64,000 bases of DNA from Candidatus Nomurabacteria bacterium GW2011_GWE2_34_25. GTDB lineage: Bacteria; Patescibacteriota; Minisyncoccia; Phycocordibacterales; UBA9973. This document shows, piece after piece, positions 218 to 41,310 of this stretch (position 1 is the first letter of the stretch; each line of letters opens with the position of its first letter). The notes below the pieces were generated by a model. That model saw nothing but the letters and a program-made list of their open reading frames with translations, ran no database searches and was not told the DNA's origin. The translations under genes and the position numbers were made by a program. The DNA lies in NCBI GenBank assembly GCA_000990325.1, contig LBPS01000002.1:9562-73561 (forward strand), read 5' to 3'.

Positions 218-291
218 TCCGCCCTTAGCTCAGTTGGTTAGAGCATCGAGCTTATACCTCGAGGGTCCCACGTTCGAATCGTGGAGGGCGG
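218..291 (+). tRNA. tRNA-Ile (anticodon TAT)
   Basis: Cloverleaf folds by eye: acceptor CCGCCCT/AGGGCGG, D-arm GCTC-AGTTGGTTA-GAGC, anticodon stem TCGAG/CTCGA with loop CTTATAC, T-arm CCACG-TTCGAAT-CGTGG, discriminator A. Confidence 0.8.
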
Positions 292-296
292 ACAAA

Positions 297-330: not shown

Positions 331-2643
331 TTCAAAATGCAATTTTAAATTCTTTTCCAAAAGTGTTTTTCCTAAAATAGGGTATTTCTTTAAATCTTCA
401 TCTTTCTCTATTATTCTAATAGCTTCTGTGCGGGCTGCTTCTACCATTTTAATATTCTTAATAGCTTCCATTCCTAAGTCTGTAATACCCCATTGTTTGT
501 CGCCAGAGAGAAGGCCAGCCCCGCGAAGCTGTAAGTCGAGCTCGGCAAGCTCAAAACCATTGGTAGCCTTAGTCAGAGCTTTTAGTCTATCTATGGTTTT
601 TTCACTTTTAGCATCAGCAAATAAGTAGCAGTATGACTGGTGGTTTGAACGGATGACTCGACCCCTTAGCTGGTGGAGCTGAGCAAGTCCGAACCTTTCA
701 GACCCTTCTATTATTATAACTGTTGCATTTGGAACGTTTACTCCGACTTCTATTACAGAAGTAGAAACAAGGATGTCTATTTTCTTTTCTGCAAAGTCCT
801 TCATGACCTTTTCCTTCTTATCCTTGGTCATTTTACTGTGCATTATATCAATGTTGTAATTTGGAAAAATATCTTTCTTGAGCCTCCTAGCTTCGGTGGT
901 TACTGCTTTGAGATCGGACATATTGTTCCCGTCAGCACGCAATAAAACCTTACTAGGTTTTTTACTAGTACTCGGACCGTCGTCCTCTGTAATGCTTCCT
1001 GGAATAATATGTCCGACCTCTTCGCTACCTTCTATCTTCGGACAAATAACATAAAGCTGTCGGCCCTCCGCCAGTTCTTTTTTAATTTTTTCATATGCTT
1101 CGACTCTTTTATTTTCAGGAACTATTTCGGTTATTACTTTTTTACGTCCCTCTGGCATTTCATCTATAATACTTAAATCTAAGTCTCCGTAGATAGTGAG
1201 AGCCAGTGTACGGGGGATAGGGGTGGCCGTCATGGAAAGATAGTGTGGGGCATGTCCGTCCTTTTTGGCAAGTTTCATTCTTTGATTTGTTCCAAAGCGA
1301 TGTTGCTCATCTATGATAACTAGACCCAAATTTTCAAATTCTACAGTTTTGGATATGAGAGCATGAGTACCGACAACTATCGGTATCTCTCCATTTTTGA
1401 TCCATTTGAGGAGCTGACTTTTAGAAATAGTTGTCCAAGTTTTTACTTGTGCTCCGTTCTCCCATCTTGCAGACTTGCTTGGGTATTTCCGACATCCAGA
1501 GCCTGTCATAAGAGCTATGGAAATACCTGTATGTTCAAAATACCCTATAAAGTTCTCAAACAGTTGCGTTGCCAGCACTTCGGTCGGAGCCATGTAGGCA
1601 ACTTGTAAATTACCAAAGTCTCCATATCGTGAAGTACCAGTTGTATTCTTTATAACTGCATAAGCAACAGTTGCAGCGACGAAAGTCTTACCAGACCCCA
1701 CGTCTCCCTCGATGAGGCGTGACATAGGCTTGTCTTTCACTAGGTCGTCTAGGATAGTATCGATAGCACCTGTCTGTGCTTTAGTCGGGGTGAAAGGGAA
1801 ACGGGAAATAAAGTCATTGATATCTTTGTGCGGAATTTTTAATTTATATGAAAAGAGTGATTCGTATTTTTTCTTTTCTTGTTGGCGAGCAAGTTGGACG
1901 AAGAAGACTTCTTCAAATGCGAATCTTTTGCGAGCAATCTCGGCATGCTCTTTCTTTTGTGGCATATGAACCCAGAATAGAGCCGTATGTAGGGCCGGTA
2001 ATTTGTAAGTATTTAATATATCAGTAGGGATGTAATCTAGAATTTTTGTCGTACAATCCTGTTTGAGTATTTTTTGTATTGCATGATAAAACCATTTAGA
2101 AGTTATACCACGAGATTCTCTATATACAGGGAATCCAAATTGAGTCTGTGCTCCCTTATTGCTGAAAAGTGAATCATGAATATCTATCGGAAGGATATCC
2201 TCTTTTGTTATTTCCGGGTTTGTAAGAGTAAGTCCATATGTTTTACTCTCTGTTACTTTGCCCGTTACTCGCACAGTAGAGCCCTCCTTCAGCATCTTTG
2301 CTAAATATGGCTGATGAAACCAAACTATGTTTATGGAGCCTGTTAAATCCGATAGGATTGCTTGGCCCATAGGAATCTTACTCTTAAACCCTTTTTTAGT
2401 TTTGAGGCTTGATATTTTCCCTAGGATTGTAACATTTTCTCCATCAGCCAGAGTATTTATATTCCTTACTTCACTGATATCGCTATATCGAGACGGGAAG
2501 TGATAAAGTAAGTCTTTCAAAGTAATGAGATCCAATTGTCTCAAAGCCTTTTTTTGATTTATATCGATTCGAAAATGATTTTCGATTTTATCAGCAAGAT
2601 TCATCTGTTTATTTGAATAATAACTTGTGTACAGTGAGAGCAA
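328..2643 (-). CDS. recG: ATP-dependent DNA helicase RecG
   Basis: 771 aa; wedge domain and helicase motifs (GDVGSGKT Walker A, DEQHRFG). Alternative start at M14 (nt 2604) gives an ATGA overlap with the mscL stop. Confidence 0.9.
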   Translation of the reverse strand: MLSLYTSYYSNKQMNLADKIENHFRIDINQKKALRQLDLITLKDLLYHFPSRYSDISEVRNINTLADGENVTILGKISSLKTKKGFKSKIPMGQAILSDLTGSINIVWFHQPYLAKMLKEGSTVRVTGKVTESKTYGLTLTNPEITKEDILPIDIHDSLFSNKGAQTQFGFPVYRESRGITSKWFYHAIQKILKQDCTTKILDYIPTDILNTYKLPALHTALFWVHMPQKKEHAEIARKRFAFEEVFFVQLARQQEKKKYESLFSYKLKIPHKDINDFISRFPFTPTKAQTGAIDTILDDLVKDKPMSRLIEGDVGSGKTFVAATVAYAVIKNTTGTSRYGDFGNLQVAYMAPTEVLATQLFENFIGYFEHTGISIALMTGSGCRKYPSKSARWENGAQVKTWTTISKSQLLKWIKNGEIPIVVGTHALISKTVEFENLGLVIIDEQHRFGTNQRMKLAKKDGHAPHYLSMTATPIPRTLALTIYGDLDLSIIDEMPEGRKKVITEIVPENKRVEAYEKIKKELAEGRQLYVICPKIEGSEEVGHIIPGSITEDDGPSTSKKPSKVLLRADGNNMSDLKAVTTEARRLKKDIFPNYNIDIMHSKMTKDKKEKVMKDFAEKKIDILVSTSVIEVGVNVPNATVIIIEGSERFGLAQLHQLRGRVIRSNHQSYCYLFADAKSEKTIDRLKALTKATNGFELAELDLQLRGAGLLSGDKQWGITDLGMEAIKNIKMVEAARTEAIRIIEKDEDLKKYPILGKTLLEKNLKLHFE

Positions 2644-3014
2644 CGCTTGGCATCTATGGGTATTTCACTTAGACACTCATTACACTTCTTTGTTGTTGGA
2701 TCAGATGGAGGTTCTTTGTGTGATCGTGAGACAAGTAAATTCATTGGCTTAACAACAAAAAAGAACACAGAAGAAGCTACCAACAAGAATGATATGAGAG
2801 TATTTATAAAGTGTCCGTATTTAAACTCACTCCCATTGATCGTGAATAATAATCCATTAAAATCAGGAACTTTTGCAATAGCAGAAATGAAGGGAGTAAG
2901 TAGATCTGTTACTAATGATGTAACAATAGTTCCAAAAGCCGCGCCAATAACGACACCGACGGCCAAGTCGACAACATTCCCTCGAAGTAAAAATTGTTTG
3001 AATTCTTTGAGCAT
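2601..3014 (-). CDS. mscL: Large-conductance mechanosensitive channel MscL (with C-terminal Cys-rich tail)
   Basis: N-terminus MLKEFKQFLLRGNVVDLAVGVVIGAAFG is the classic MscL signature. Confidence 0.85.
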   Translation of the reverse strand: MLKEFKQFLLRGNVVDLAVGVVIGAAFGTIVTSLVTDLLTPFISAIAKVPDFNGLLFTINGSEFKYGHFINTLISFLLVASSVFFFVVKPMNLLVSRSHKEPPSDPTTKKCNECLSEIPIDAKRCSHCTQVIIQINR

Positions 3015-3061
3015 AAAAATACCTTATTATTTAATAATATAAATTATAGCATATTTTATTT

Positions 3062-3148
3062 GCGGAGGCGGTGAGATTCGAACTCACGGTACCGATTAAA
3101 GTACGACGGTTTAGTAAACCGTTGATTTAAACCACTCATCCACGCCTC
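3062..3148 (-). tRNA. Type-II (long variable arm) tRNA, Ser-like, with unusual anticodon loop TTACTAA (anticodon ACT)
   Basis: Minus-strand fold: GGAGGCG-TG-GAT-GAGTGGTTTAA-ATC-A-ACGGT-TTACTAA-ACCGT-long arm-GTGAG-TTCGAAT-CTCAC-CGCCTCC-G. D-loop is nearly identical to E. coli tRNA-Ser; discriminator G. Confidence 0.6.
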
Positions 3149-3283
3149 CTCACTTCGTTCGTCGGCGTGTCTTCGTGTCCTTCCGGACCCTTCCCTCAAG
3201 CTAGTGCTCACACATAGCTTGTCGGATAAAAGTATCCGAACGGATGAAATATAAAGCAGTTTACATTTCATATCCACGCCTCC
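3149..3283 (-). ncRNA. Candidate structured ncRNA just upstream of the type-II tRNA, bounded by a 12-nt direct repeat of the tRNA 5' end. GC-rich, several hairpins, including GUCC-GGAA-GGAC resembling the SRP RNA domain IV tetraloop
   Basis: ATCCACGCCTCC at 3137-3148 and 3272-3283; local GC well above flanks; hairpins TCGGATA/TATCCGA, AAGCTA/TAGCTT, GTCC-GGAA-GGAC. Confidence 0.3.
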
Positions 3284-3374
3284 AATTTTTCTATCTTAGC
3301 ATATTTATCTTTAAATATAAAATTATAATTTTTGAGTAAAAATCATTAATATGATAAGGTATAATTGTAACAAA

Positions 3375-3461
3375 GGAGCCGTGTCAGAGTGGTCTAACGT
3401 ACCTCTTTGCTAAAGAGGCAGGGTGTAAAAGCCCTCGCGAGTTCGAATCTCGCCGGTTCCG
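3375..3461 (+). tRNA. tRNA-Ser (anticodon GCT)
   Basis: Acceptor GGAGCCG/CGGTTCC (one G-U), anticodon stem CCTCT/AGAGG with loop TTGCTAA, long variable arm, T-arm GCGAG-TTCGAAT-CTCGC, discriminator G. Confidence 0.85.
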
Positions 3462-3551
3462 CATTAGTTATTTTACTGCAAAGTTTGACAAAAATCATAT
3501 AAAAAGTAATGTATATAAAAAAGTAAATCCTAAATTTTAAAACATATCAAT

Positions 3552-4282: not shown

Positions 4283-5581
<1,299 letters not shown>

Positions 5582-9252: not shown

Positions 9253-9296
9253 TTCTTAATTTTACTATATATATGTTATACTAGGTAGTAATAATT

Positions 9297-10445
9297 ATGG
9301 ATAATTCACTTAAGAGTATAATATCATCTGGAATAGCTAGCTTTTCTGAAATTTTTTCTGGAGACAAATCTACTAAAAGTGTTTTAGGGGTGGATATTGG
9401 GTCTTCTGCTATAAAGGTTGTCCAACTAAAGAAAAAAAATGGCAAAGCTATTCTTGAGACATACGGAGCGATATCTCTTGGTCCCTATGGAAATACAGAT
9501 ATAGGGTCAGTCACCAATCTACAGGTTGATGACATTGTCCGTGCTTTAATGGACGTTATGAAAGAATCAAATGTGACTGTCTCATCTGGTGTTATGGCTA
9601 TCCCATCATCTTCAAGTTTAATTTTTACTATATCATTACCTGATAAAATTACAGAAGATAAATTTGCTAGTGTTATTCCTATAGAAGCTCGCAAATATAT
9701 TCCAGTACCTATATCTGAAGTTACACTTGATTGGTTTGTATTACCGAAAGATATTGAGTCGTCTGAAAATAATATAATGAACCAAAAAACTCCTCCCATT
9801 GCAGTTGATGTAAAAACAGAAGTTTTGGTTGTTGCTATTCATAATGATATCCTTTCTCGCTATCAAGAAATATTAAAAAAGACAGAACTAAAGTCTGAGT
9901 CATTTGAAATGGAAATTTTTAGTAATATCAGATCGTCTTTTTCTCATGATTTGGCGCCAGTATTACTTATGGATTTTGGAGCTTCAAAGACCAAGTTGTC
10001 TATTATAGAGGAAGGAGTTGTGCATGTTTTTCATGTTGTGAACAGAGGTGGCGCTGATATCACCAAAAATATTGCTTCTTCTCTCAGTATATCTTTTTCT
10101 GAAGCAGAAAAGCTCAAACGTGAAGTAGGACTAGATATGAATAGTAATCAAGAAGTAGCAGATATCATTCGTTTATCCACTGATTATATATTGTCAGACA
10201 CAAATAGTGTTGTGTTTGCTTATCAGAAGAAGTATAATAAAAATATCAGTAAGGTTATTTTGACAGGTGGAGGATCTATTACGAAAGGACTTATGGATAA
10301 AGTTGTAGCTAATTTTCGTACAGAAGTAGTTTTCAGTAACCCTTTTTCTAAAACGGAAGCCCCAGCATTTTTAGGTCCAATATTAGAAGTTAGTGGGCCA
10401 GAGTTTAGTGTCGCGGTTGGTTTGGCTTTGCGACAATTATTTTAA
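9297..10445 (+). CDS. pilM: Type IV pilus assembly protein PilM
   Basis: Actin-like ATPase N-terminus LGVDIGSSAIKVVQLKK typical of PilM; first gene of pilMNO. Confidence 0.8.
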   Translation: MDNSLKSIISSGIASFSEIFSGDKSTKSVLGVDIGSSAIKVVQLKKKNGKAILETYGAISLGPYGNTDIGSVTNLQVDDIVRALMDVMKESNVTVSSGVMAIPSSSSLIFTISLPDKITEDKFASVIPIEARKYIPVPISEVTLDWFVLPKDIESSENNIMNQKTPPIAVDVKTEVLVVAIHNDILSRYQEILKKTELKSESFEMEIFSNIRSSFSHDLAPVLLMDFGASKTKLSIIEEGVVHVFHVVNRGGADITKNIASSLSISFSEAEKLKREVGLDMNSNQEVADIIRLSTDYILSDTNSVVFAYQKKYNKNISKVILTGGGSITKGLMDKVVANFRTEVVFSNPFSKTEAPAFLGPILEVSGPEFSVAVGLALRQLF

Positions 10446-26175: not shown

Positions 26176-26202
26176 GTTTTTGGTATGTCACTTACCGAAT
26201 TG

Positions 26203-26273
26203 TTGCGGGAGGTCGAATCGAACGACCGTCTTAAGGTTATGAGCCTTACGAGATACCATTTCTCTATCCCGCT
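26203..26273 (-). tRNA. tRNA-Met (anticodon CAT), initiator-like (1-72 mismatch, A11:U24)
   Basis: Acceptor AGCGGGA/TCCCGCA with A1·A72 mismatch, D-arm GAG-AAATGGTAT-CTC, anticodon stem TAAGG/CCTTA with loop CTCATAA, T-arm GGTCG-TTCGATT-CGACC. Confidence 0.75.
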
Positions 26274-26347
26274 ATATAATATTAAATTTTACAAACATCT
26301 ATTTTTTCAAAGACTCATAACCGGTTATTCGCGCTATTAGTCCTTTC

Positions 26348-26378
26348 GGAGATACAATTTCTCTATCCCGCTATATAT
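26348..26378 (-). repeat. Partial duplicate of the tRNA-Met 5' end plus 7 nt of 5' flank (30/31 nt identical to 26250-26280), continuing into a decayed tRNA copy
   Basis: gagatacaatttctctatcccgctatata versus gagataccatttctctatcccgctatata. Confidence 0.7.
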
Positions 26379-40972: not shown

Positions 40973-41088
40973 GAGTTACATTCTACCTTATTATCCTATG
41001 ACTTTCAATTGAATTTTTAGCATTTTGTGGTAATATGTTAAATAATTGCCGAATGGTTATGAGTTTGGAATAATTAAAGTTTTAATCT

Positions 41089-41159
41089 TGCCGAATGGTG
41101 TAATGGTAGCACGTCTCCCTCTGGAGGAGAAAATTGGGGTTCGAATCCCTGTTCGGCAG
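41089..41159 (+). tRNA. tRNA-Gln (anticodon CTG)
   Basis: U1-A72 acceptor TGCCGAA/TTCGGCA, anticodon stem TCTCC/GGAGA with loop CTCTGGA, T-arm TGGGG-TTCGAAT-CCCTG. First 12 nt duplicated at 41046-41057. Confidence 0.75.
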
Positions 41160-41293
41160 CAAAAATTGTTTAGGCAATTTTTGATGCCGAAAGCAAATGA
41201 ACTGCTTCATTTGCGTCAGGGATGAGAAAGGCTTTTCGTTATCGAAGATTGAAAAGCACCCGCGACGGTAGTCGAGAAAAGTGTACTCACGCT

Positions 41294-41310
41294 CCCTGTT
41301 CGGCAGCCAA
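41294..41310 (+). repeat. Direct repeat of the tRNA-Gln 3' end (CCCTGTTCGGCAGC) carrying an encoded CCA, 133 nt downstream of the tRNA
   Basis: 14-nt identity with 41147-41160; downstream copy reads ...GGCAGCCA while the gene copy reads ...GGCAGCAA. Confidence 0.7.

Follow-up and report, generated by a model that had tools for sequence, protein, structure and literature searches.

The subject of the present work is a segment of 134 nucleotides (nt), at 3150-3283 on the minus strand of a 64,000-nt stretch of DNA (the window, to which all coordinates refer) from Candidatus Nomurabacteria bacterium GW2011_GWE2_34_25, contig LBPS01000002.1, which lies immediately 5' of a gene for a serine tRNA with the anticodon ACU, tRNA-Ser(ACU). 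The insert that this segment carries, designated type A below, is a conserved structured RNA which matches no described RNA family. The reading that we prefer, to which a probability of about one half is assigned, is that 3150-3283(-) is a site-specific insertion element without an open reading frame (ORF) which encodes this structured RNA, resides in the leader of the precursor tRNA (pre-tRNA), is bounded by a 12-bp repeat of the tRNA 5' end, is removed by ribonuclease P (RNase P), and is closed by a helix between an upstream "decoy" copy of the tRNA 5' strand and an internal "anti-sequence" complementary to it.

According to this reading, the element sits exactly between the likely promoter of tRNA-Ser(ACU) and the first base of the tRNA, and every pre-tRNA transcript would carry it as an obligatory leader of about 140 nt. 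The leader would be cut at 3149/3150, presumably by RNase P, which removes 5' leaders in tRNA maturation, to yield the mature tRNA, and the element would thus behave like an intron whose removal is supplied by the ordinary tRNA-processing enzyme. The anti-sequence (CACGCC together with AUCC) would pair with the upstream decoy to produce a closed fold of four hairpins and a mini-hairpin; this fold, formed co-transcriptionally, would keep the anti-sequence off the genuine tRNA 5' strand and allow the cloverleaf to form. The first hairpin, with its CUGC loop, would link the element to two further families found at tRNA ends in the same bacterial group, and a role as a recognition site is proposed for it. 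What the sequences show directly is the anatomy of the leader, its conservation and covariation, the presence/absence polymorphism with its direct repeats, the place of the promoter at the level of sequence, the complementarity, and the assignment of the downstream copy to the tRNA. Co-transcription, removal by RNase P, the protective role of the decoy-anti helix, mobility and its machinery, and recognition of the CUGC loop are the parts of this reading that we infer.

Together with its relatives, the leader defines no fewer than three families of structured RNA that are well supported (14, 14 and 23 covarying pairs). Rfam contains none of them, and in these bacteria, whose genomes are very small, all three are tied to tRNA gene ends. 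If this holds, the architecture of tRNA end, anti-sequence and decoy copy could represent either a new way for selfish DNA to live harmlessly in essential RNA genes or a new way to gate tRNA maturation.

Anatomy of the leader

The features of the segment and of the two tRNA genes beside it are as follows.

3293-3301, minus: likely extended -10 promoter TGCTAAGAT, read from the sequence, 9 nt upstream of the upstream copy
3272-3283, minus: upstream copy of tRNA nt 1-12 (GGAGGCGUGGAU), an exact repeat; the left direct repeat, or decoy strand
3244-3271, minus: H1, a 12-bp hairpin closing on AACUGCUU (CUGC tetraloop); one pair is AU in four members and GC in four, and another varies between GC and AU
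3221-3241, minus: H2, hairpin UCGGAUA/UAUCCGA; three of six pairs change on both sides in the eight type A members
3198-3220, minus: H3, hairpin AAGCUA..UAGCUU; five of nine pairs change on both sides
3191-3197, minus: purine-rich junction GAGGGAA, nearly invariant in the type A alignment
3175-3190, minus: H4, hairpin GGGUCC-GGAA-GGACAC, resembling signal recognition particle (SRP) RNA; the stem covaries (CG in six, UA in two) and the loop is variable
3164-3174, minus: conserved GAAGA, then the anti-sequence CACGCC, complement of nt 4-9 of either copy; helix 87.5% paired in the eight members
3150-3163, minus: mini-hairpin GACGA-AC-GAA-GU-GA, abutting tRNA +1; two covarying pairs (AU in six, GC in two; CG in three, UA in three, UG in two)
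3062-3149, minus: tRNA-Ser(ACU), called by ARAGORN; type II, G73, CCA not encoded
3375-3462, plus: tRNA-Ser(GCU), the divergent partner, called by ARAGORN and by the Rfam tRNA model (42.8 bits)

A first-pass annotation of this DNA had reported that the first 12 nt of the tRNA are repeated at 3272-3283 and that some 123 GC-rich, folding nucleotides lie between the two copies. The repeat is exact: in the 64 kb, GGAGGCGTGGAT is found on the minus strand at 3138-3149 and at 3272-3283 and nowhere else, against a chance expectation of 0.09. The spacer is 122 nt rather than 123, and copy and spacer together form the 134-nt element. Its other reported properties hold, since its GC content is 46% (51-52% in the richest 100-nt windows), as compared with 34% for the whole window and 21-30% for the flanks, and the leader alone folds at -49.7 kcal/mol (z = -5.0), with none of 200 shuffled sequences folding equally well. 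The leader holds no ORF. Its mini-hairpin is retained in three deletion derivatives from relatives, whose loci are designated by L numbers (L116, the upstream unit of L145, and L157), and in all eight type A members the closing C of this hairpin pairs with G+1 of the tRNA.

Known RNA families

The GGAA hairpin noted in the first-pass annotation is present as H4, and it had suggested that an SRP (4.5S) RNA gene adjoins the tRNA, a suggestion to which next to no probability can now be given. In its favour, the 12 nt GGUCCGGAAGGA match exactly the region around the tetraloop of E. coli 4.5S RNA. However, a permissive Rfam scan of 2950-3500, with E values up to 10, gave no match to SRP RNA, transfer-messenger RNA, RNase P RNA or 6S RNA, and the SRP family (RF00169) had no match at gathering score anywhere in the 64 kb. 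The H4 tetraloop varies among seven homologous elements (GGAA, GGGA, AAGA, GAGA and AGUA), and H4 is a local stem of 4-6 bp whose 3' side reads CACGAAG and not the SRP-type AGCAGC, so that it has neither the long closing helix nor the AGCA motif of the 3' side. The element is also absent from most relatives, whereas SRP RNA is essential. The SRP reading was rejected on the absence of an Rfam match, the unconserved tetraloop and the patchy presence of the element.

Apart from the two tRNAs and artefacts from tRNA antisense strands, the same permissive scan gave nothing but a GA-cis match (RF02987) below threshold, with 20.3 bits against a gathering score of 34.7 and E = 0.09. GA-cis was discarded as a candidate, being below threshold here and having no match, at E up to 1, in the type A homologues L137 and L154.

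tRNA-Ser(ACU) is a conserved gene family

The minus-strand type II tRNA with anticodon ACT described in the first-pass annotation is called by ARAGORN and scores 57.1 bits with the Rfam tRNA model, against a gathering score of 29. It has a variable arm of 17 nt and a G next after the acceptor stem, as a type II serine tRNA should, and its divergent neighbour does have the normal GCT anticodon that had been ascribed to it. The A at position 34 had been called odd; the oddity stands, yet it is conserved. A metagenome scan with a 36-nt tRNA core pattern, in which A or G was allowed at position 34, yielded at least 119 stretches, and among the matches listed A34 is found in 127 and G34 in 3 of 130 tRNAs. 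These comprise about 70 distinct tRNA-Ser(ACU) sequences (among the matches listed) in which the acceptor stem, variable arm and T stem change in a compensatory way, the acceptor pairs including GGAGGCG/CGCCUCC, GGAGAGA/UCUCUCC, GGAGGAU/AUCCUCC and GGAAGUG/CACUUCC. Because it is conserved with compensatory changes, the gene is taken to be functional: tRNA-Ser(ACU) is a conserved gene family of the Candidate Phyla Radiation (CPR), neither a pseudogene nor a one-off mutation. The divergent GCU/ACU pair is found in three other species in a genome scan with MscL, the product of a neighbouring gene (L018, L046 and L063), and is common to many metagenome loci. The two genes are about 70 nt apart where no leader is present; the spacing is 70-82 nt in the three species and 225 nt in the window.

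In the ORFs of the window, AGU is used 262 times and AGC 61 times, and AGA, with 207 occurrences, is the commonest arginine codon. The anticodon ACU belongs to a split codon box, and an inosine in its wobble position would read AGA as well. One would therefore expect A34 to escape editing and, by the usual decoding rules, to read the dominant AGU codon by Watson-Crick pairing. Other bacterial tRNAs likewise have a genome-encoded wobble A, namely the TadA-edited tRNA-Arg(ACG) and the Mycoplasma tRNA-Thr(AGU), from which tRNA-Ser(ACU) differs in sitting in a split codon box. A literature search found no description of a bacterial tRNA-Ser(ACU), nor of A34 in CPR bacteria, and to our knowledge none has been described. 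If true, a wobble-A serine tRNA conserved in a split box across many CPR lineages bears on decoding rules, and raises the question of how A-to-I editing is kept off A34.

Two leader architectures and their covariation

Relatives were retrieved through the tRNA or through MscL, and the scans described here covered the loci so obtained. Their comparison, which had been suggested as a way to learn whether relatives carry the block or a plain tRNA, shows that both kinds occur: among the matches listed, 21 of the 106 distinct loci with sufficient upstream sequence carry an upstream copy of nt 1-12 of their own tRNA, with two mismatches or fewer. When ARAGORN genes are counted by tRNA, with at most one mismatch and the copy at most 250 nt upstream, such copies are found, among the matches listed, as follows.

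tRNA-Ser(ACU): 20 of 104 genes
tRNA-Ser(GCU): 2 of 76 genes
tRNA-Ile(UAU): 0 of 16 genes

The leaders follow two architectures. Type A has eight members from different metagenomes, with 78-90% identity (the window, L137, L145, L154, L169, L193, L212 and L215), and its order is the 12-nt copy, H1 (12 bp, CUNC loop), CC, H2, H3, GAGGGAA, H4, GAAGACA with the anti-sequence, the GACGA mini-hairpin and the tRNA. Type B (L133, L138, L184, L188/L214, L194, L202 and L211) consists of a 15-18-nt copy, H1 with AACUGCUU, H2, a sequence complementary to the D arm, a small hairpin, C(C)UCC(G/A), an AU-rich spacer and the tRNA. When 1.15 Mb were searched with R1, a covariance model built on the type A core, the eight known copies and no others were recovered, every one of them immediately 5' of tRNA-Ser(ACU).

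The covariation alignments are small, with 7-9 sequences, and give the following support for the closed folds.

Type A: 96.9% of cells paired, against 34-38% for slid controls; 14 pairs change on both sides; none of 500 shuffles reaches the observed value
Type B: 92.8% of cells paired, against 34-43% for slid controls; 14 pairs change on both sides; none of 500 shuffles reaches the observed value

In the type A closed fold, G-U pairs occur only on the tRNA-sense strand, and the structure is therefore that of an RNA of that strand.

This conservation bears on the view that the element is a functionless remnant of a partial tandem duplication, a decaying pseudo-tRNA, which we regard as very unlikely. 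Some resemblances to tRNA exist, in that the H1 loop CUGCU is similar to nt 32-36 of the anticodon loop of tRNA-Ser(GCU) and GUUCGGAU in H2 is similar to a T loop, and the tRNA-Met and tRNA-Gln genes of the window also have upstream copies of their 5' ends. Against this stand 14 covarying pairs in eight diverged copies that are 97% paired, a GC content well over background, and the recurrence of the same 122-nt interior in different species with different flanks.

Presence and absence of the element

Identical 86-nt tRNA sequences occur with a type A leader, a type B leader, a short remnant or no leader at all; the tRNA variant of the window, for instance, is leaderless in L165, and L137 (type A) and L214 (type B) share the same tRNA. 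Two pairs of loci, L215 with L113 and L193 with L158, are collinear with nearly identical flanks, and in both pairs the filled and empty sites differ by exactly the 12-nt copy and the element, which amounts to a clean 134-nt indel bounded by a 12-bp repeat. Tandem units are present in L194, L202, L184 and L145, and five deletion derivatives (L116, L123, L140, L147 and L157) keep the copy, the 3' mini-hairpin or both. On the preferred reading, gain and loss of the element are rapid among close relatives; gain by insertion is favoured because two architectures occur at one site and because of the tandem arrays; easy loss through the direct repeats is also expected.

In the tandem arrays (about 240 nt before the tRNA in L194, in L202 and L184, and at 2800-2881 in L145), the second unit is diverged or internally deleted and lies upstream of the full unit, and the promoter precedes the first unit.

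Within the species of the window there is no variation to exploit, since all the loci are identical: 22 contigs from several collections encode the same MscL, and the fetched loci are 100% identical wherever they cover the 611-nt region. A candidate indel among these contigs was rejected, as the contig breaks sit instead in k-mers common to both tRNAs.

Promoter and ownership of the two copies

The likely -10 element of the window is positionally homologous to TGCTATAAT and TGTTATACT, found in L046 and L018 at a distance of 13-14 nt before the leaderless tRNA. Most leader-bearing loci have a -10-like hexamer, often TGn-extended, 9-19 nt before the copy, and none of the leader-bearing loci has an extended -10 in the 20 nt next to the tRNA itself. 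In the 85 leaderless loci among the matches listed, extended -10 hexamers were counted 43 times, nearly all of them 9-18 nt from +1. Since the sole recognisable promoter is upstream of the copy, we infer, as a reading of the sequence, that the element is transcribed as an obligatory 5' leader of the tRNA-Ser(ACU) precursor. In this respect the proposal that the block is a structured tRNA leader holds physically, with a promoter before the upstream copy and none before the tRNA; as to regulation, which was the other half of that proposal, alternative pairings exist and covary, and the leader has no terminator or ribosome-binding-site platform.

A sigma-70-like match (TGGATA, 17 nt, TATATT) at 3248-3276(-), which spans the upstream copy and H1, is probably due to chance, as the region has two matches where shuffled sequences give 2.6.

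The existence of two copies of the tRNA 5' end raises the alternative that the upstream copy is the true 5' exon and that the next 134 nt are spliced out as an intron in the D arm. Both RNAalifold and the single-sequence minimum free energy (MFE) fold do pair the upstream copy with the 3' acceptor strand. The upstream copies follow each host tRNA's own acceptor sequence, yet they contain substitutions which are incompatible with a tRNA: A7 opposite C66 in L215 and L214, A2 opposite C71 in L193, A9 in L184, and, in L202, U14 at the position of the invariant A14. At every difference between the two copies, it is the upstream copy that breaks tRNA rules and the downstream copy that is intact, so the upstream copy is not a 5' exon and the D-arm intron fails. 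This alternative is further weakened by the lack of a match to any group I or group II intron model in the window leader or in four relatives scanned (which match no Rfam family either), by a length of 134 nt that is too small for a self-splicing core, none so small being known to us, and by the duplication itself, which an intron would not create. It is accordingly judged highly improbable.

Anti-sequence, competing folds and points against an insertion element

In both copies of the tRNA 5' end, nt 4-9 are complementary to CACGCC of the type A leader, and nt 9-12 to AUCC, which directly follows H1. The pairing covaries, the tRNA segment GGUGUG of L193 being matched by the anti-sequence CAUACU. 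The anti-sequences of type B and the tRNA segments to which they correspond are listed below.

CCAAU with AUUGG
CCAUC with GAUGG
CCGCC with GGUGG
CCCAUC with GAUGGG
CCACG with CGUGG

The type B copy-anti helix is 94.8% paired, with three pair types at each of two pairs. A further stretch, CUCC(G/A), forms base pairs with -1 to +4 in either copy, and position -1 covaries. In every lineage, the decoy and the true 5' strand of the tRNA agree with each other and with the anti-sequence complement.

Several points weigh against the preferred reading of 3150-3283(-) as an insertion element. No copy was found away from the tRNA-Ser(ACU) target by R1 in 1.15 Mb, and the 64-kb window holds no second copy of the insert. 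There are no terminal inverted repeats, the ends AUGAAAUG... and ...GAAGUGA not being mutually inverted, and no gene for a transposase or integrase is among the flanking genes. Given these absences, no known mobility mechanism fits, and the 12-bp duplication is long for a transposase. The description of the segment as an insert with a target-site duplication, as first proposed, is borne out by the two filled/empty pairs, and the inverted repeats and dispersed copies that would go with it are missing. The sampling is biased, because loci were fetched through the tRNA itself, and an ancestral leader precisely lost through the 12-bp repeats could give the same pattern of presence and absence. Finally, in nearest-neighbour calculations, which leave out tertiary structure and base modifications, a non-productive fold, with the genuine 5' strand of the tRNA trapped by the anti-sequence, has an energy of -87.3 kcal/mol, as compared with -80.5 for the productive fold, a difference of about 7 kcal/mol. 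In simulated transcription the decoy-anti helix forms first, and the MFE fold flips once the downstream copy has been transcribed. Since the trapped fold is the more stable in this model, the element may not be harmless, which suits a regulatory role just as well.

The main rival explanation takes up this last point: the leader would be a cis-regulatory switch in which the decoy, the anti-sequence and the true 5' strand alternate as partners, and a factor or ligand bound to H1-H4 decides between folding and trapping of the tRNA. That copy, tRNA 5' end and anti-complement match one another in lineages whose acceptor sequences differ is consistent with such a device, as are the closeness in energy of the two folds and their exchange during transcription, the conserved purine-rich junctions GAGGGAA and GAAGACA, which could form a binding pocket, and the pairing of the leader's 3' hairpin with G+1 at the RNase P cleavage site. 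However, about 80% of the loci among the matches listed are leaderless, even with an identical tRNA, so that a switch would have to be a dispensable and short-lived device. Two unrelated architectures occupy one site, the leader holds no terminator, ribosome-binding site or other expression platform, and no ligand or partner is known. For these reasons we consider the switch a real but distinctly less probable explanation. Some of the readings of the element are compatible with one another.

Comparison with known systems

The tRNA genes of Patescibacteria carry group I introns (PMC13011429), and the paper describing them was the only relevant one in a literature search for tRNA-like or structured RNAs in Patescibacteria. 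The introns and the element are alike in that each is an ORF-less structured RNA in a tRNA gene of the same phylum, with removal at the RNA level and a patchy distribution. Whereas the introns are located in the anticodon loop and are spliced (PMC13011429), the element is located at the 5' end, has a 12-bp duplication, is proposed to be removed by RNase P, and has neither a group I core nor an Rfam match. By analogy, the element may function most like these introns, being tolerated through its removal at the RNA level.

In integrative elements that target tRNA genes through attachment (att) sites, too, a direct repeat of a tRNA segment flanks the insert, and the tRNA is restored intact. As far as is known, integrases duplicate the 3' portion of the tRNA, and their elements carry kilobases of DNA which include the integrase gene; here, by contrast, the duplication covers the first 12 nt of the tRNA, the inserted cargo consists of 122 nt of structured RNA, and there is no integrase in the neighbourhood. 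Miniature inverted-repeat transposable elements (MITEs) share with the element a small size, the lack of an ORF, a repeat like a target-site duplication, presence/absence polymorphism, and tandem and deleted derivatives, but the element lacks terminal inverted repeats, has one target and a single copy per locus, and shows strand-specific RNA covariation with G-U pairs. Attenuator and T-box leaders resemble it in the competition of three segments (decoy, anti-sequence and true strand) and in having tRNA-complementary sequence in a leader. The element differs from these in having as its target the tRNA that follows it and not an mRNA, in having no terminator or ribosome-binding-site platform, and in being dispensable in most relatives.

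The R2 retrotransposon is co-transcribed with the 28S rRNA and released by a ribozyme. It offers an analogy only, in being site-specific, residing inside a structural-RNA unit from which it is processed out, and having an RNA that contains or pairs with the host target; the element has no reverse transcriptase and no known ribozyme motif, and its host is bacterial. The element fails the defining tests of introns, integrative elements and MITEs, since it has no intron core, no terminal inverted repeats, no dispersed copies, a 5' duplication and no integrase.

Related elements at other tRNA ends

The CUGC-type hairpin of H1 is not confined to 5' leaders. Hairpins closing on AACU(N)CUU number 38 in 1.3 Mb, and 33 of the 38 are no more than about 110 nt away from a tRNA gene; most are 33-61 nt downstream of genes for tRNA-Ser, tRNA-Glu, tRNA-Gln or tRNA-Ile. 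They mark a 3'-type element of 125-150 nt in which 5' GCGGAGNCG and GUGAGA pair with 3' UCUCAC-CGNCUCCGC, forming acceptor-like and T-stem-like helices, and whose last 12-19 nt often duplicate the 3' end of the neighbouring tRNA. In this family 23 of 38 pairs covary, its covariance model (R2) has about 25 significant matches, and there is no match in Rfam. One member is in the window:

41183-41308, plus: 3'-type element of 126 nt, 105 bits with R2, downstream of tRNA-Gln (41089-41160)

In this member UGCCGAA and CAGGGA, complementary to the last 15 nt of tRNA-Gln, flank an GCAAAUGAACUGCUUCAUUUGC hairpin, and those 15 nt are duplicated at 41293-41307. The R2 model does not match 3150-3283, and the H1 AACUGCUU hairpin alone is common to both; the type A leader and the 3'-type are linked by this hairpin motif and by the shared logic of tRNA end, anti-sequence and copy, and not by demonstrated homology. 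A comparison of 3'-type elements with empty sites gave no filled/empty pair, the flanks not being collinear.

Four 3'-type copies (L117, L129, L204 and L215) have an acceptor-like helix, GGAGACG/CGUCUCC, which mismatches the neighbouring tRNA, and they are therefore self-contained rather than local duplications; a rearrangement between two tRNA-Ser genes is possible at these loci.

The 3'-type family also bears on whether the leader is an independent small RNA gene, which would use the promoter and 5' start of the tRNA, receive its 3' end from RNase P and act in trans as an RNA of about 135 nt. The strong structural conservation, which extends to loop and junction nucleotides, the compact closed fold, and the closed, tRNA-like RNAs formed by the 3'-type relatives are all in keeping with such a gene. 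Its presence is nevertheless patchy even among identical tRNAs, it was not found off tRNA ends in the 1.15 Mb searched with R1, and its internal sequence tracks the neighbouring tRNA, with no external target, so that a trans-acting RNA appears unlikely.

A wider generalization can be put forward tentatively, at somewhat less than even odds: that the three families together form a hitherto undescribed class of elements in CPR bacteria of the Paceibacteria type, which lack an ORF, have an RNA structure and home to tRNA gene ends, each with a guide complementary to the duplicated tRNA segment and a CUGC hairpin recognised by a factor acting in trans, and each residing in a leader or trailer that is cleared by RNase P or RNase Z. 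If this class exists, its members are in effect introns "spliced" by RNase P, and the window holds two of them, 3150-3283 and the element at tRNA-Gln, 41183-41308.

Copies of tRNA 5' ends are found at further genes. For tRNA-Met(CAU), at 26202-26273, nt 1-24 are copied 99 nt upstream with one mismatch (26274-26372, minus strand), both 5' copies are preceded by AATAT(T)ATAT, and the 75-nt spacer holds GGTTATGAG, the complement of the anticodon loop and 3' stem (CTCATAACC). For tRNA-Gln, nt 1-11 are copied 42 nt upstream, at 41047-41057(+), with a -10-like TAATAT hexamer about 10 nt before the copy; judged by its sequence, this copy looks like a short, deleted version of a 5' leader. In two relatives, L105 at 9263-9421(-) and L201 at 4330-4491(+), tRNA-Ser(GCU) is preceded by its nt 1-17, a structured insert of about 90 nt, its nt 20-35/37 and a spacer. 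The inserts have a covarying hairpin and a common AGCCGGAGCGCGA motif, and in L201 about 28 nt of the upstream flank is duplicated too.

Genomic neighbourhood

The genes that flank the element encode RecG, MscL, a hypothetical protein of 229 amino acids, enolase, a DksA-like protein, a ComF-like protein and PilM. The 229-residue protein is annotated in Candidatus Nomurabacteria GW2011_GWF2_35, and the genome belongs to the CPR (Patescibacteria). Synteny searches that used it led to a relative with 82% identity and to more distant ones, all without the tRNAs. The closest MscL homologues, with 88-92% identity, have different neighbourhoods, and MscL is therefore no phylogenetic proxy. Scans of viral contigs with the insert and with the tRNA gave no match.

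The MscL gene, at 2601-3014(-), encodes a C-terminal extension with two CxxC pairs (CNEC...CSHC), and several close homologues have a matching extra Pfam domain, PF10571. An extended -10, TGCTATAAT, is present at 3015-3061(-), between the 3' end of tRNA-Ser(ACU) and the MscL start; to judge from this sequence, MscL is probably expressed from a promoter of its own, and its co-transcription with the tRNA is not required.

A tRNA-Ile with the anticodon UAU, which is uncommon in bacteria, is encoded at 219-293(+), and the same tRNA is found in 16 related loci. In the ORFs of the window, the codon ATA is about as frequent as ATT (604 and 648 occurrences).

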